Of a stretch of 64,000 nt of DNA, positions 5,311 through 52,485 are shown piece by piece. Each line of letters begins with the position of its first letter. Within the stretch, counting starts at the first letter, position 1. A model generated the notes under the pieces. The model was not told the origin of the DNA. It was given only the letters and a program-made list of their open reading frames with translations, and made no database searches. Location: contig OX597817.1 in assembly GCA_951406725.2 (NCBI GenBank), positions 50,034,001 to 50,098,000 of the forward strand. Reading direction: 5' to 3'. A program made the translations under genes and the position numbers. The stretch is from Octopus vulgaris (lineage: Eukaryota).

Positions 5311-5356
<46 letters not shown>

Positions 5357-5570
5357 AATATTAAATTTCTAAATATCTCATAGAGATATGTACGGTGGTG
5401 GGGCGATAGAATGGTTGTATATTGTCAATTTAACGTGACAGTAGGGGATTACACCACCGCTGTTTAGCCCTAGGAAGCATCGACGCCTCCTGTCGGCTTC
5501 GACACATTTTTTCCTGTGTCCTTATATATTTACGAAGGGGAGACAAACACCCCCAGCAGCCAGGCCTGCA

Positions 5571-5617
5571 TCCAGAGACACGCATATTTCAGGATCTTTG
5601 TCCATCATCGGTCTAGA
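5571..5617 (-). ncRNA. Type I hammerhead ribozyme (copy A1)
   Basis: Minus strand: UCUAGA-CCGAUGA-UGGACAAAGAUCCU-GAAA-UAUGCGUG-UC^UCUGGA. Stems I and III pair using G-U wobbles; core has a U4C variant. Confidence 0.65.
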
Positions 5618-5643
5618 GTAGCAGAAGCCTGCCAGCTGCAGAT

Positions 5644-7256
5644 TAACTCTTTATTATAGGCACAATCACCCGGATTAAGAGGGGACATTACAATACAGGA
5701 CATGGGGTACATATAATAAAAAATCAAAAAGTATGGTATGACAATGAATTATTTATAATGAATTAATGGAATGTCTTACGAGCCCCAAAACTCGCAGTTT
5801 CATTTACACTTACAATTGTGTTATTCAGGGCGTTCGTCCGTTATGTATGTGAGTAACTTCTCCTGTTCTATAATACTTGGCAAACTTTCATACCTAATGT
5901 AATGCATTACACATACAGCTGTATACGCATTTTTCAGTTTCATTACTGTCTCTTTTTCTACAATCGCCGCCTTCACTTGGTCACCAAAAATTTTCGAATT
6001 TAACTTCACTCTAATTAGACTTTTCATATTTGCCAACTTCTTTTCAATTTCCTTGTCCTTCTTGTACAATATTATAGCTTTAAGATTTCTTCCTTTTGGT
6101 CTTCCTCCTTCCTTACATTTTTCCAGCTGTTCTTCCACTCTTCTATCCCATTCTTCCGTTATCTAACAATTTGAAGCTTCACTCGCTTTCGTTTCTGTAT
6201 CTTTCTCTTCGTGCGTTCGATCCTCCATGTCGTCGATCGACTTCTTTTTAGCTTTTTTCTTTTTTTGTGCTTTGGGTGGTAATTCCACCCGCGTTCTCTT
6301 TCTATCCTCTTTTTCTTCTGTTCTTTCCTTTCCTTTCTCCGACTCCTCACCACTTTCCACATTATCTGTAGTCACGATTTCCTCTTCCACATTCGCCTTT
6401 TGTAACTCCTCTGTCAAAGCCTCCAGTGTTATCGTTTTCTCTTGTACTTCTCTTCGCAGACACATATCCTTCATGTGGCCTCTAATTTTGCAATTGTAAC
6501 ACACTGGGGGTCTCCTCTCCACCACGACTCTGAGACGTGTCTCGTCGGGGAACACCAACTCCTCTGGGATGTTATACAGGCCTGGCATAACCCCACCACT
6601 TTAGTTCTTTCGACTTTTCCACCTTTAGTATGTCGACACTCTCTTTGCAGTTGAACACTATTGCCGCTACAATTCTTTCCATGTTCAGTTCCGGTGAAAT
6701 TTTAGTGATTCGTATTCTTACTGCCCTTTTTCCACAATAGCTAGGTAGTAACACCTATTTTTCCGTTTTCAATATTTTCGTGATGTTCCTCTTCGCTTCA
6801 TCTTCGTTTTTAAAATGAACGACTACTGTTGCGTATTTTCTACCTCTATTGTAGAAGGTAGTTTCTTCTTCAATTTCCTGTAAACACCTCTCGATTTCCT
6901 CCGCTTCTGCTGCTTCTATTCTCTTCGAAGCCACGCTCCACGTTCTGTATGTTATAATACGCTTCTCCGCCTCCTTCGCTTCGTCTTCAGGTGGTGTGAC
7001 CCTCACACAATCACCTTCCTTCTTGAAGCTGTTGAAGCATTTCTTCAAAATCTCCTTCTCGACGACCACTTCCTCCAACTGCAGTTCGCTCGCAGCCAGG
7101 CCCTTGCCTGCTGCTCCCGCATAAGTTTGGGCTTGCATACTCGAAAAAAAAACGTCCAACAATTCATTACGCCGTAACAGCTTCCACCAACGAATTCGAA
7201 CTCACAGCCGCAATACACAACAACCGTAACACAAAATAACCGACACAAAAAAAAAA
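5644..7256 (-). mobile_element. Non-autonomous Tx1/L1-like retroelement carrying only ORF1
   Basis: Flanked by a 15-bp direct repeat ctgcYagctgcagat (5629-5643 and 7257-7271). Minus-strand 3' end tgtattgt..cccctct..gtgc..aataaaga resembles the LINE end at ~44494-44520. Confidence 0.7.
5821..7138 (-). pseudogene. Disrupted gag-like/ORF1 protein (~440 aa) with CCHC zinc knuckle
   Basis: Four track ORFs join through two in-frame TAGs (6755-6757, 6163-6165) and one frameshift near 6588. CYNCKIRGHMKDMC is a CX2CX4HX4C knuckle followed by a K/E-rich region. Confidence 0.75.
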
Positions 7257-7558
7257 CTGCTAGCTGCAGATATTTGTTCCGACTTCGTAAATATATATAT
7301 CTAATTTTCAGTGAAGTTTATTCACTGATTACCAAAATCAGAAATATTAAATTTCTAAATATCTCATAGAGATATGTACGGTGGTGGGGCGATAGAATGG
7401 TTGTATACTGTCAATTTAACGTGACAGTAGGGGATTACACCAACGCTGTTTAGCCCTAGGAAGCATCGACGCCTCCTGTCGGCTTCGACACATTTTTTTC
7501 CCTGTGTCCTTATATATTTACGAACGGGAGACAAACACCCCCAGCAGCCAGGCCTGCA

Positions 7559-7605
7559 TCTAGAGACATGCATGTTTCAGGATCTTTGTCCATCATCGGT
7601 CTAGA
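7559..7605 (-). ncRNA. Type I hammerhead ribozyme (copy A2)
   Basis: Minus strand: UCUAGA-CCGAUGA-UGGACAAAGAUCCU-GAAA-CAUGCAUG-UC^UCUAGA. Perfect 6-bp stem I, palindromic stem III (ACAUGCAUGU), GUC cleavage triplet. Confidence 0.72.
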
Positions 7606-8604
7606 GTATGGTAACATATCTTATTCGAGTAGGAGCATATAAAGCGAAAACGACAGGAAATACTTATAAAGACACGAATTGAAATATGTTATCGTTAACA
7701 CGGAATATGACCCCAAAATATCTAAAGACATTTCTCTGTAAGGCAAAGGTTACATATTCGTTGAATGAATGTGTTAAATTTCTGTAATAGAAGAAGTTCA
7801 TAAATGTTTAAATTGCTTTGCTTCTGGATATATTCTTCATCGTGCCGTTGAACTCTTCACTTCAGTAGAAGTAACCCAACAGTCGTACACACACATACAC
7901 ACACAAACACACGCACACACAAAATTACTTCTCTGAAGACTTACAAGGAACGCTTGAATATTTTTACCTCATACAGTGAAGAAAAGAAAATATATGGGGT
8001 CCATTTTCTCCGGGGTTTGTTTAAAAATAATGGAATCAGAATTTGATTTCGAAGCCTGTGAAAATTCCAGAAGCTGTTTCTTGAAACTTAGTACGGAAGT
8101 TTCTGTAATTCCTATTCGGTCTTGGATCAGAATCATCTATACCTTGGGCTTTAAAGTTTCACAGTTCTGGAATATTTTCTACCAAAATATTACAGATATA
8201 TTCTGAGTAGTCATTAATATATTCAAACAATATTTGGATTTCTATAATGTGTGATCTCGGATTAACGTACATCACAACTAGAGGCGCAAAGGTGGGAAGC
8301 AAACTTTCTTATATTCCAGATATCATGCAGACGGCAAAAGGATGCACCGTTATTTATGGAGAACTCGAATCTTATTCGCATCCTATCACGTTTCAATTAC
8401 TACTCGTTTCAATTCACGTAATCAATCAGGACAAAATGATTTCAAATTTATTAAACTTTGAAAGTAAAATTGTTTTATTCAATCTAAAACTGTACGCTGG
8501 CTACGATTTGAATCATATTCAAAGATATTCAGAATGCTATGATTTTCATACTATAATCTCGCTATTATATTTCATATTTCTAATGTTATTTATATTCCTT
8601 TCAA

Positions 8605-8988
8605 AATTCGGCACAAAGCTAGTATTTTCAGGGACGGGAGTAAGTCGATTACATGACCCCAGCGGTTAACTAACTTATTTTATCGATCCGAAAAAATGAA
8701 AGGTAATGTCGACCTCGGCGGATTTTGAACCCAGAGCAAAATGGCGAACGAAATACCTATTTCATTACTACCCACAAGGGACTAAACACAGAGAGGACAA
8801 ACAAGGACAGACAAACGGATTAAGTCGATTACAGCGACCCCAGTGCGTAACTGGTACTTAATTTATCGACCCCGAAAGGATGAAAGGCAAAGTCGACCTC
8901 GGCGGAATTTGATCTCAGAACGTAACGGCAGACGAAATGCCGCTAAGTATTTCGCCCGGCGTGCTAACGAATCTGCCAGCTCGCCGTT
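8605..8988 (-). mobile_element. SINE family B, two joined copies
   Basis: Shared core gaaaggatgaaaggcaaagtcgacctcggcggaatttga.ctcagaacg with tRNA-like head ggcgagctggcag...gttagcacgccggg on the minus strand. Confidence 0.85.
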
Positions 8989-9301
8989 ATGTTACAGATA
9001 CTAGCAGTACTAACGATGGAACAAAACGTATACTGCAAGCACTCAACACGGTGCTTCTTATTACGTCAGTATCCAAGCTGAGATAAAATGTCAGGTTTAA
9101 CAGAATCATTTGCCGTCTATTTTACTGGGCTGATGAATCAAAACAAGTTAAGATTTTTAGCGATGTGTAGGAAAATAGTATTATCGATACATCGAATCCA
9201 CCGCCCCCATTTTAATTGGATCTGTAATTAGTTATTTTGCTCAAAGACAAACATGCCGGCTAAATCTTAAATTACAGTAGATTTTTATTATCTTTTTATC
9301 G

Positions 9302-13481: not shown

Positions 13482-13696
13482 CCTTTCTACTGGAAGCACA
13501 AGGCCTCAAATTTGGGGGAAGGGATTAAGTCGATTGCATCGACCCCAGTGCGTAACTGGTACTTATTTAATCGACCTCGAAAGGATGAAAGGCAAAGTCG
13601 ACCCCGGCAGTATCTGAACTCAGAACGTATCGGCAGACGAAATACTGCTAAGAATTTTGCTCGGCGTACTAAAGATTCTGCCAGCTTGCCGCCTTC
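13482..13696 (-). mobile_element. SINE family B
   Basis: Family B core and head motifs. Confidence 0.8.
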
Positions 13697-13697
13697 A

Positions 13698-13772
<75 letters not shown>

Positions 13773-15045: not shown

Positions 15046-15047
15046 AT

Positions 15048-15302
15048 AGAGTGGTTGTATACTGTCAACTTAACGTGACAGTAGGGGATTACACACCGCT
15101 GTTTAGCCCTAGGAAGCATCGACGCTTCCTGTCGACTTCGACACATTTCCTGTGTCCTTATAAATGTGTCGAAGCCGATACTAGGGCTAAACAGCGGTGG
15201 TGTGTAATCCCTACTGTCACGTTAAGTTGACAGTATACAACCACTCTATCGCTCCACCACCGTACATATCTCTATGAGATATTTAGAAATTTAATATTTC
15301 TA
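15048..15302. mobile_element. Fold-back truncated copy of the hammerhead repeat family (ribozyme segment missing)
   Basis: 15048-15161 matches ~7394-7513 in the same orientation; 15162-15302 is an inverted copy ending in gaaatttaatatttct. Confidence 0.8.
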
Positions 15303-15305
15303 AAC

Positions 15306-15493
<188 letters not shown>

Positions 15494-16990: not shown

Positions 16991-17062
16991 AGGTTGCATT
17001 TAAATGCAGTATATGAGGCCAGACGAAGTACACGTAAAAGAATGTCTGATACGTACAGTTCG

Positions 17063-17845
17063 CTAGTTGGAACCGGTGACAGCAGTGGTGTTAGTGATGA
17101 AGGGGCAAGTGTTGCACCGGGATCTGGAGCACGGGAAGGATCCGTGTGGGGCTGAGGGGGAAGAAGAGAGGGTGCTACGGACCAGGAGGTCGCGTAGATT
17201 CCGGGCTCGTTTGAAGGAGGACAGGGTGGGTTGGGGAAATGGGGCGGGTCGTGGGATCGAGCTGGAGGCGACGGAAGGCACGTAGTATCTTCCGACGAAG
17301 GGGTAGAGTAGAGGGGTGGAAAATGAGGGGAAAGGGGGTGCGGTTGGGGGTGGGTGAGAGGAAGGAGAAAGGGCGGTGGTGCGGTCGATGCGACGGGCAC
17401 GGCCAAGGGCGTTGAAGACCAGTGTAGGTGGGTATCCTCGATGCCTGAACAGGCGGGCCAGGTATTGAGACTGGGTCTCGAAATCCTGGTCGCGGCTGCA
17501 CAAGCGTCGGAGGCGGAGGAACTGAGAGTAGGAGATGGTCCGTTTGGTGTGGAAGGGGTGGGAGGAGGAGAAGTTGAGATAGAGGTGGGAATCCGTGGGT
17601 TTGAAGAAGGCGGAGATGGTGAGAGAGTGGGAGGGGTGGTCGATGCTGAGAGAGATATCAAGGAAGTTGACAGAGGTATTGGAGATGGTGGAAGTGAATT
17701 GTAGAGAGGGGTGGAAGTTAGAGAGGAAAGAGATGAAATGGCAGAGTTGGTCGCGGGAAAGGGAGGTGGCGCCTATGCAGTCGTCTATGTAGCGACCGTA
17801 TAGTTCTGGGGTCGGCCCGGATAATTGGGAGAATACTTGGAGAGG
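17063..17845 (-). mobile_element. Penelope-like retroelement fragment: RT C-terminus, thumb and zinc-binding linker
   Basis: Open frame with YGRYIDD, VNFLDISL, KPTDSHLYLNFSSSHP, YSQFLRLRRLCS, RGYP and CSRSRCNTC. Much more GC-rich than its flanks. Confidence 0.9.
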
Positions 17846-18779: not shown

Positions 18780-20180
18780 TTTTCTACTCTAGGCACAAGG
18801 CCCGAAATTTTGGGGGAGGGGGTGGGGAGAGGATTAGATTTGACTCCAGTATGCAACAGGTACTTAAATTATCGACCCCGAAAGGATGAAAGATAAAGTC
18901 GACCACGGCGGAATTTGAACTCAGAACGTAGCGGCAGACGAAATACCTATTTCTTTACTACCCACAAGGGGCTAAACACAGAGAGGACAAACAAGGTCAG
19001 ACAAACGGATTAAGTGGATTATATTGATCCCAGTGCGTAACTGGTACTTATTTAATCGACCCCAAAAGGATGAAAGGCAAAGTCGACCTCGGAGGAATTT
19101 GAACTCAGGACGTAACGGCTGACGAAATACCGCTTAGCATTTCGCCCGGCGTGCTAACGATTCTGTCAGCTCGCCGCCTTGGAACAAATATTGTAAGCAT
19201 TACTTTCGATACTCTGAGTTTTCCAGTTGACCACCTTAAAGTTTCGCCAGTTCGTTAGAGTCGTATTTATCAATATGTTTAAGATATCTGTTATTATGCT
19301 GTTTATTTTCTATTTCATTTTTTAGGCGATAACAGCATTATTCAATCGATTCTTTAATTATTGGTTCCAAACATCGGCACAAGGCCAGCAATTCCGGGCG
19401 TTGGAGTTGGTCAGTCGATTACATCAACATCAGTGCGCAACTGGCTCGTATTTTATCGGCCGTGAAAGAATGAAAGGCAAAAATCGATCTCGGCCGTATT
19501 TGAACTCAGAACGTAATAACGGACAAAATACGACTTAGCATTTTGCCCGCCTTGCTAACAATTCAGCCAACGCACTGGGTTAATTGTTTCTTTAAATATC
19601 GATTTCGAATTTTGGCACAAATCCAACAATTTTGGTGGGAAGAGTAAGTCGATTACATCGACCCCAGTCCTTGCTTATTTTATCGACCCCGAGAGTGTGA
19701 AGGGCCAAGTCAACATCGGTGGCATTTGAACTCAAAACATGAGCAGAACGTAAGGACGGACGAAATGCCAGCTTACTGCGTTAATTGTTTCTTTAAATAT
19801 ATAGGCACAAGGCCTGAAATTTGGTGGGAGGGGAATAGTTGATAATATAGACCACAGTGTTTCACTGGTACTTATTTTACCTACCCCGAAAGGATGAAAG
19901 GCAAAGTCGACCTCGGCGGAATTTGAACTCAGAACATAAAGACGGTCGAAATACCTATTTCTTTACTACCCACAAGCACAGAGAAGACAAACAAGGACAG
20001 ATAAACGGATTAAGTCAGTTACAGTGACCCCAGTGCGTAACTGGTACTTACTTAATCGACCCCGAAAAGATGAAAGGCAAAGTCGACCTCGGCGGAATTT
20101 GAACTCAGAACGTAACGACAGACGAAATACCGCTAAGCATTTCACCCGGTGTGCATACGATTCAAACAGCTTGCTGCGTT
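18780..20180 (-). mobile_element. Cluster of about six SINE family B copies
   Basis: Repeated family B core at ~18870, 19055, 19455, 19682, 19885 and 20055. Confidence 0.85.
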
Positions 20181-51270: not shown

Positions 51271-51626
51271 ACAAAATAGAATGAAAATCTACAGAAGACT
51301 TGTATTATAGGCTTAAAGAATATATTAAATCGTCATGTTAGAAAAATGTTACAGAATTTTGTGTATAGTAACATTGTTTTTGGAGAAATAACCAGTTTCG
51401 TATTCTCTTTTCAAATTTCACAAATTTCTTTACCGATATTGTGTCATCTCTTCGCTGGTTTTTTTCATTCTATTTTGTTTTTATACATCCAACCACGTGC
51501 TTTTAGAAGCCAACTCTCTCACTCATATATATATATATAATTCCTCTATTTACATAATATCGAGGTCTCTTTCTTTCTTTGTTGTTTTACCGTTTTTATC
51601 AATATACATATGTATGTATATGTATG

Positions 51627-51675
<49 letters not shown>

Positions 51676-51839
51676 GTTGTATACCGTCAACGTAACGTGA
51701 CAGTCCCGTATGGGAATTACACCACCGCTGTTTAGCCCTAGGAAGCATCGAACGCTTCCTGTCGGCTTTGACACATTTTTTCCCTGTGTCCTTATGTTTG
51801 TGAAGAGGAGGTAAGCACCCCCACCAGCCAAGATTCACA

Positions 51840-51886
51840 CCTCAGGACATGCATGTTTCTGGGTCTTAACCCGTCATCAGCCCAGG
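51840..51886 (-). ncRNA. Type I hammerhead ribozyme (copy B1)
   Basis: Minus strand: CCUGGG-CUGAUGA-C-GGGU-UAAG-ACCC-A-GAAA-CAUGCAUG-UC^CUGAGG. Canonical core, palindromic stem III. Confidence 0.8.
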
Positions 51887-52176
51887 ATAGGGAGATCTGC
51901 TGATTGAGGAGCCTGTCCAGCCTTCACAAACATATATATTTACAGAGAAATGTAAATATATATGTTTGTGAAGGCTGGACAGGCTCCTCAACCATGCGGG
52001 ACTGTCACGTTAAGTTGACGGTATACAATCACTCTATCGTTCTACCACCGCTCATGTCTCTTTCAGACATCTAGAAATTTAATATTTCTGATTACGGTGA
52101 TCAGTGAATAGATTTCACTGTAAATATATATGTTTGTGAAGGCTGGACAGGCTCCTCAATCAGCAGATCTCCCTAT

Positions 52177-52223
52177 CCTGGGCTGATGACAGGTTAAGAC
52201 CCAGAAACATGCACGTCCTCCGG
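52177..52223 (+). ncRNA. Type I hammerhead ribozyme (copy B2, slightly degenerate)
   Basis: CCUGGG-CUGAUGA-CAGGUUAAGACCCA-GAAA-CAUGCACG-UC^CUCCGG. Confidence 0.7.
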
Positions 52224-52443
52224 TGTGAATCTTGGCTGGTGGGGTGCTTACCTCCCCTTCACAAACATAAGGACACAGGGAAAAAATGTGTCAAAGCCGA
52301 CAGGAAGCGTTCGATGCTTCCTAGGGCTAAACAGTGCTGGTGTAATTCCCATACGGGACTGTCACGTTATGTTGACAGTATACAACCACTCTGTCGCTTC
52401 ACCACCTCTCATGTCTCTTTGAGACATTTAGAAATTTAATATT

Positions 52444-52485
<42 letters not shown>

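Follow-up and report, generated by a model that had tools for sequence, protein, structure and literature searches.

The DNA that separates two hammerhead ribozymes in the Octopus vulgaris window (the whole stretch analysed, 64,000 nucleotides of contig OX597817.1, positions 50,034,001 to 50,098,000) is in all likelihood a broken copy of a multicopy retroelement that encodes ORF1 only. Its insertion site is fixed and lies upstream of the hammerhead in retrozymes of several families. The element likely gets there by a target-primed reverse transcription that it borrows from a LINE with two ORFs, which uses the same site and which we take to be Tx1-like. The copies, called cassettes below, form a family, are bounded by duplications that match each host, have their site in common with the LINE, carry an ORF1 under selection and at five loci entered after the retrozyme was in place. 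Since the element lands repeatedly upstream of hammerheads in several families, the insert is likely a parasite of ribozyme repeats and not a protein-coding circular RNA.

Anatomy of the window locus

Two 272-nt repeat copies on the minus strand (7608–7337 and 5620–5351), 97% identical to each other, flank the insert of 1613 bp (Table 1). The anatomy put forward in the earlier note was found in the letters as described. Both type I hammerhead motifs and their GUC sites can be read on the minus strand, with cleavage predicted after 7565 and after 5577, and the two cuts would release 7564–5577, or 1988 nt. The 15-bp duplication that bounds the cassette is real, has one mismatch between its copies and is present once in empty retrozyme monomers, as claimed for an insertion into the retrozyme junction with target duplication. 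The remnant of the ORF is interrupted by stops at 6757–6755 and 6165–6163 and by a frameshift near 6585. The window copy is best explained as an insertion into a dimeric retrozyme in which the hammerhead of the upstream monomer happens to survive. There is no inverted retrozyme copy at the window locus, and the evidence from inverted copies on the order of events comes from the other loci described below.

Table 1. Features of the nested insertion and its flanks; positions are those of the window
Feature	Position	Strand	Description and basis
Upstream family-A retrozyme monomer	7257..7608	-	Starts 3 nt before hammerhead stem I; repeat comparison
Upstream type I hammerhead	7559..7605	-	U4C core, palindromic stems I and III; predicted cut 7565/7564; sequence and covariation
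TATA-like box	7292..7299	-	28 nt before duplication start; putative promoter role
Target site duplication, 5' copy	7257..7271	-	15 bp; repeat alignment, empty monomers
ORF1-only non-LTR element	5644..7256	-	1613 bp; T-rich 5' end; AATAAA at 3' end
Broken ORF1	5821..7138	-	Two RRM-like domains, CCHC knuckle, acidic/basic C-terminal half; 2 stops, 1 frameshift
Zinc knuckle CX2CX4HX4C	6460..6501	-	E 0.0013, just below Pfam cut-off
AATAAA close to element 3' end	5650..5655	-	Sequence; conserved among copies
Target site duplication, 3' copy	5629..5643	-	One mismatch to 5' copy
Downstream type I hammerhead	5571..5617	-	U4C core and two extra G-U wobbles; predicted cut 5577/5576
Downstream partial retrozyme monomer	5351..5628	-	Ends at common family end (monomer position ~272) in TA microsatellite

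The host repeat and its hammerheads

The host repeat of the window locus, family A, has a monomer of ~360 nt and gave 2861 candidates in a DNA search of the genome, of which 40 were scored. Its copies are partial tandems (dimers and trimers). An inverted 5' copy often goes with them, and their ends lie close to position 217 or 272 of the monomer. Non-LTR retrozymes have been described as ~360-nt monomers with a type I hammerhead, arranged in partial tandems with inverted 5' copies (PMC7229834, excerpt), and family A likewise carries its type I hammerhead in tandem repeats of a size within 150–450 nt. Partial tandems, 5' truncation and the inverted 5' copy, all seen in family A, are also in the feature list of PMC8557442 for Penelope-like insertions, and the same excerpt locates the Penelope-like start site in the pLTR. 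Judged by its sequence, the host repeat fits both the non-LTR retrozymes and the Penelope-like insertion forms, and the retrozyme is probably moved by a Penelope-like enzyme. One Penelope-like family was compared with family A and gave no match across 30 loci with 1.5-kb flanks. A broken Penelope-like RT/GIY-YIG fragment lies in the window at 17003–17839 on the minus strand and is 64–95% identical to an ORF in locus L181. Loci L221 and L239, among others, contain a Penelope-like family that is very young, with many of its copies identical and with frames of 884–1009 aa still open. The window also contains a dispersed SINE-like repeat family, presumably an octopus SINE, at 8688–9012, 13496–13717 and 18797–19992.

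Since an Rfam search at gathering threshold matched neither window hammerhead and the folding energy of both motifs was no better than that of shuffles (z of −0.86 and 0.11), support for their identity was taken from covariation. Among 55 distinct hammerheads parsed from the fetched loci, by a parse that demanded stem pairing and not the 3–8 pair, that core pair was C-G in 42 and U-A in 11, and several pair types occurred in stems I and II. The family-A core reads CCGAUGA (U4C). In hammerhead families B and C (L003, L014, L021, L129, L131) the core pair is U3-A8 instead of C3-G8. Two further hammerhead-repeat loci with inverted copies were observed in the window at 15046–15310 and 51602–52481, the second with a canonical CUGAUGA core.

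The cassette family and its ORF1 protein

A DNA search of the 2.8-Gb genome returned 297 cassette candidates (40 scored), whose full-length copies are 78–91% identical and have fixed ends. The unit measures 1.6 kb and contains one ORF; open natural copies encode 450–463 aa, ORF1 only. The subfamily of the window cassette ends a few nucleotides past AATAAA with no A tail, and a young related family has A runs.

Residues 1–250 of ORF1 were modelled at pLDDT 92 from a 108-row alignment. The best Foldseek matches of this model were tandem-RRM proteins (E of 4e-4 to 1e-3), and VIA-align delimited two alpha/beta domains, residues 50–135 and 134–220, at middling Z scores of which the best was 8.2 and none stood clearly above background. 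The zinc knuckle was recovered in 22 of 24 aligned cassette copies at E up to 0.5. The RRM-like fold model and the CCHC knuckle both support the earlier prediction that the ORF encodes a nucleic-acid-binding ORF1. The term "Gag-like" used for it suits the zinc knuckle only, the rest being modelled as a tandem RRM-like fold. A retroviral or LTR Gag was considered and rejected: no capsid domain stands before the knuckle, which in the model of residues 1–250 is directly preceded by alpha/beta RRM- or ACT-like domains. As modelled, the domain order is the layout of a LINE ORF1 and not that of a capsid Gag.

The median dN/dS was 0.115 for residues 1–240 (11 open copies, of whose 55 pairs 45 could be used), 0.40 for the middle of ORF1 (55 pairs) and 0.29 for the C-terminus (50 pairs), with many pairs near saturation. 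Read in this way from the alignments, the cassette ORF1 is under purifying selection at a dN/dS of ~0.12. A word-based homologue search with the full ORF1 gave no match. A profile search recovered homologues where the word-based one had not, and the 10 relatives looked up included five ORF1 matches, from Octopus vulgaris, O. bimaculoides, O. sinensis and Argonauta hians. The cassette ORF1 also resembles ZCCHC3 (Atlas score 0.91), a resemblance that we regard as a lead; a literature search found no paper linking ZCCHC3 with Tx1.

Insertion sites, duplications and the order of events

Of the 30 closest cassette copies, 27 lie next to a hammerhead repeat or to the target sequence of such a repeat, and 25 have the hammerhead downstream. 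The hosts of these 30 copies were family A or an array at its site (20), family B (3), family C (4), an LTR (1) and sequence elsewhere (2), to which more distant cassette copies add hammerhead families D–F. Of the 29 copies that have a 3' end, 21 show a clear duplication of 14–21 nt, which in every case agrees with the local host, and in L006 the duplication of a previous host is found at the cassette 5' end. On a tree of 28 cassettes, from which L026 and L029 were omitted as incomplete and in which 3'-only family-A copies were scored as a separate group, the host label was unclustered (12 changes versus a shuffled mean of 12.5; 71 of 200 shuffles as low), and well-supported clades mixed hosts A and C, or A, LTR and other. 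An inverted retrozyme copy was present at 6 of 14 cassette loci examined. Five of these span the target and one is uninformative; all five are empty while the direct copy carries the cassette. Since the inverted copies are empty at every informative locus, cassettes usually entered retrozymes that were already in the genome. The idea that a retrozyme gained its cargo once and then spread as a unit is contradicted by these results: own-host duplications, unclustered hosts and empty inverted copies indicate that the cassette itself is mobile and entered many retrozymes independently. Separate inserts of ~340–490 nt with their own AATAAA end were seen at the same retrozyme site in L162 (1027–1510) and L163 (1174–1510), and are possibly truncated copies of another family.

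A two-ORF LINE at the same site

A search for AATAAA together with the family-A target gave 23 matches in the genome, several with a LINE ORF2 upstream. Three loci, L164, L166 and L170, contain full-length two-ORF LINEs of 5.4–5.7 kb with 15-nt duplications at the same site as the cassette; they and the related L173 contain APE, RT and zf-RVT domains. The CCHC knuckle of the LINE ORF1 is intact in L173 and L179 and has one Cys changed in L164. This ORF1 is 31% identical to that of the cassette (E 4e-30), and the homology appears in the tree as well. With a CCHC knuckle in ORF1, and APE, RT and a C-terminal zinc motif in ORF2, the LINE has a Tx1-type layout. The nearest solved structure for its RT is LINE-1 ORF2 (1e-47), ahead of R2 (1e-26), which would put the partner in the L1 group in a sense that takes in L1 and Tx1 alike. 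None of the 120 homologues listed is named Tx1, the top named match among them being an Argonauta protein at 64%.

Nineteen of 21 LINE 3' ends lie at a hammerhead-host site or in an array there: 15 are followed by a hammerhead repeat (13 by script and 2 by eye) and 4 by a duplication and another element, while 2 run into other sequence. The pattern used was host-free but drawn from ends first found at host sites. This proportion exceeds the >20% of flanks in one repeat that an excerpt of PMC4494074 gives as the mark of target specificity. We also detected chimaeras in both directions: in L015 and L019 the 5' end of a LINE leads into a cassette, and in L153/L171 LINE ORF2 follows the 5' end of a cassette. 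At L164/L140 two cassettes occupy the direct retrozyme copy and a full LINE the inverted one, and double occupancy of sites looks commoner than chance would suggest (3 loci among the 23 pattern matches).

TATA spacing, arrays and the choice of target

In 22 of 26 loci the best TATA-like 8-mer within 60 nt precedes the duplication by 26–37 nt. Some cassette hosts are LTR-like, that of L138 standing upstream of a protease-RT ORF. In three LTR hosts the TATA box is found at −26, −28 and −28 with scores of 8.7–10.5, a combination matched by 1.9% of 3000 random positions, and in a third host type it is found at −29; the duplication starts of L123, L138 and L126 were set by eye. L007 and L104 have clear duplications but no TATA where the spacing would predict one, and the insertion site is shifted by 4–9 nt in families D and E. 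Because the LTR hosts are 71–90% alike, the pattern represents only three independent host lineages, and for this reason the proposal that the elements target transcription start sites is offered as a suggestion from sequence with about an even chance of being right.

Under the mechanism that we propose, the element's own ORF1 would package its RNA, the LINE ORF2 would nick the host ~28 nt after the TATA box, probably at the host transcription start, and the host promoter would then transcribe the inserted element. Because the host promoter would transcribe the element, an old duplication would remain at some 5' ends and repeated hits would build head-to-tail arrays; the former-host duplication at the 5' end of L006 is as expected if transcripts start at the duplication. 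An insert inside a retrozyme may sometimes be copied along by the retrozyme's mover, probably a Penelope-like enzyme. LINEs, and cassettes of several deep lineages (27–84% identical to L011), were seen to follow one another head to tail in arrays, the longest of which has at least seven units.

The alternative that survives best, to which we would give slightly less than an even chance, is that the LINE endonuclease reads a degenerate sequence or structure common to the hosts, with the TATA spacing incidental and an internal promoter in use. Hammerhead repeats A–E look related, so that the spacing from TATA to hammerhead may be inherited; moreover, the site lies 17–36 nt before the hammerhead core and shifts by subfamily, 4 of the 26 loci are without TATA at −26 to −37, and target choice is mainly attributed to the endonuclease in the excerpt of Kojima 2015 (PMC4494074). 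Against this, the duplicated sequences have no obvious consensus by eye across A, B, C and LTR hosts, and the LTR hosts carry strong TATA boxes at the distances given above, with a TATA box at −29 in the third host type.

The most far-reaching form of the start-site proposal is a tentative one, which we would sooner doubt than accept. It holds that the LINE and a deep radiation of ORF1-only partners may target Pol II start sites by position, ~28 nt after TATA, in unrelated mobile elements (retrozymes, Gypsy-type LTRs and a third repeat), take over the host promoter and build HeT-A/TART-like arrays inside chromosomes. They might then sometimes ride the retrozyme's Penelope-type cycle, two flanking hammerheads then giving a protein-coding circle.

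Several groups of loci are recorded here as separate observations. At L123/L124, L138 and L178, ORF1-only cassettes, one of them a six-unit array, are situated just after the CCAAT and TATA boxes of Gypsy-type LTRs. L121, L122 and L173, together with L125/L179, L126–L128 and L134–L137, are young arrays in which ORF1-only units of 443 aa, almost identical to one another, occur along with more diverged lineages. The arrays have a common AT-rich high-copy upstream repeat in which no hammerhead was seen, and they may move as a unit.

Co-mobilisation and the question of a coding circle

In a less probable alternative, retrozyme and cassette would be one mobile unit: double self-cleavage would free an RNA of ~2 kb, the RNA would circularise, and a Penelope-like enzyme would return it to the genome as a retrozyme with coding capacity. 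We consider this improbable as an account of the cassettes. Hammerheads do flank the cassette at the window locus (L001) and at L011, and L139 has elements between full monomers; however, these two are the only cases with a hammerhead on both sides among 15 family-A cassettes with an upstream direct repeat. Within family A, the more alike two cassettes are, the more alike their hosts tend to be (Mantel rho 0.45, p 0.001, n 18; 0.28, p 0.013 without the oldest pair), in a test that omits L008, whose downstream flank is a LINE. Such a correlation is expected from co-mobilisation, but also from families active at the same time. At L169 the junction of LINE and retrozyme occurs in both the inverted and the direct copy at 99.5% identity, versus 92–96% to others, and five loci (L008, L023, L025, L167, L168) are 5'-truncated, with no upstream host and with a downstream retrozyme that ends at the usual retrozyme 3' ends. 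Because of these junctions and truncated loci we conclude that inserts sometimes travel with the retrozyme, so that there is occasional hitchhiking of composites, to which later DNA rearrangement is an alternative.

Against the coding retrozyme stand the inverted copies, empty at 5 of 5 informative loci, the occurrence of one cassette subfamily in hosts that are unrelated to each other, among them LTRs in which no hammerhead motif was seen, and the element's own AATAAA end. The U4C core also lowers activity in vitro, though it is still sufficient in a viroid in vivo (PMC3088659, excerpt). The suggestion of the earlier note that such a retrozyme could propagate as a coding circular RNA is thus not upheld, given two-sided hammerheads in 2 of 15 cases and the empty inverted copies. 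Reads across the back-junction, which had been proposed as a check, cannot discriminate because a hammerhead with the same joined letters already exists in the genome. Assembled contigs from four sequencing runs cover retrozyme and cassette and contain no joint of the predicted circle; as contigs over a 97% identical repeat they are unable to show one. Finally, the earlier note also raised a one-off dead nested insertion. The broken state of the window copy would suit such an isolated insertion, taken as a processed fragment of ORF1, but this reading is refuted by the multicopy family with fixed ends; open copies, purifying selection and homologues in four octopod species also speak against it.

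Comparison with known systems

The nested, parasitic insertion that we favour would amount to three-tier parasitism in octopods, with an ORF1-only element living on a LINE, and the LINE on a retrozyme that is itself likely dependent on a Penelope-like element. An ORF1 under purifying selection without any ORF2 is a natural test of the role of ORF1 in cis. If targeting follows the start site and not the sequence, it would be of interest for programmable insertion; to our knowledge such targeting is unusual for an APE-type LINE. The locus also carries a caution, in that an ORF found between ribozymes is not necessarily the cargo of a circular RNA.

In Drosophila, HeT-A with TART and TAHRE combines an ORF1-only element with an RT-coding partner in mixed head-to-tail arrays, in which 5' sequence comes from the upstream neighbour. 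These elements are telomeric, belong to the Jockey group and make no target duplication, whereas the octopus arrays are interstitial and have target duplications. The terminons of bdelloid rotifers contain co-oriented ORFs interspersed with hammerhead repeats and are single Penelope-like units at telomeres; in the octopus, by contrast, every ORF represents a separate insertion and the RT is of LINE type.

The cassette also resembles mammalian HAL1 (half-L1). HAL1 is a non-autonomous derivative of L1 that encodes ORF1 only (PMC5753468, excerpt), and the cassette too encodes only an ORF1 that is homologous to the ORF1 of an autonomous LINE. It differs in that its ORF1 has a CCHC knuckle and is only ~30% identical to that of its partner, and in that it is target-specific. 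In the case of Tx1-clade LINEs and SINEU/Tx1-Mar, an APE-RT LINE inserts into other repeats, a non-autonomous partner has the same target, and sequential insertions stand side by side (PMC4494074, excerpt), and the octopus LINE and cassette are likewise an APE-RT LINE and a non-autonomous partner at one target. Hammerhead retrozymes are absent from the targets named in that excerpt (DNA transposons, snRNA and 5S genes, satellites, microsatellites and some LTR elements), and the SINEU partner is a non-coding SINE, whereas the octopus partner codes for ORF1. The non-LTR retrozymes, here the host repeat, are described as non-coding in excerpts of PMC7229834 and of bioRxiv 10.64898/2026.07.22.740005, and the latter has no mention of ORF1, Tx1, nested, cargo or octopus. 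The literature searched contained no retrozyme as a LINE target, no coding partner of this kind and no such arrays, and Repbase or subscription papers may already list the families. Each ingredient has a precedent in the excerpts cited (PMC5753468, PMC4494074, PMC7229834). Our verdict is that the cassette, which is nested in a hammerhead retrozyme and encodes ORF1 only, is HAL1-like and is the partner of a LINE that is target-specific and Tx1-like.
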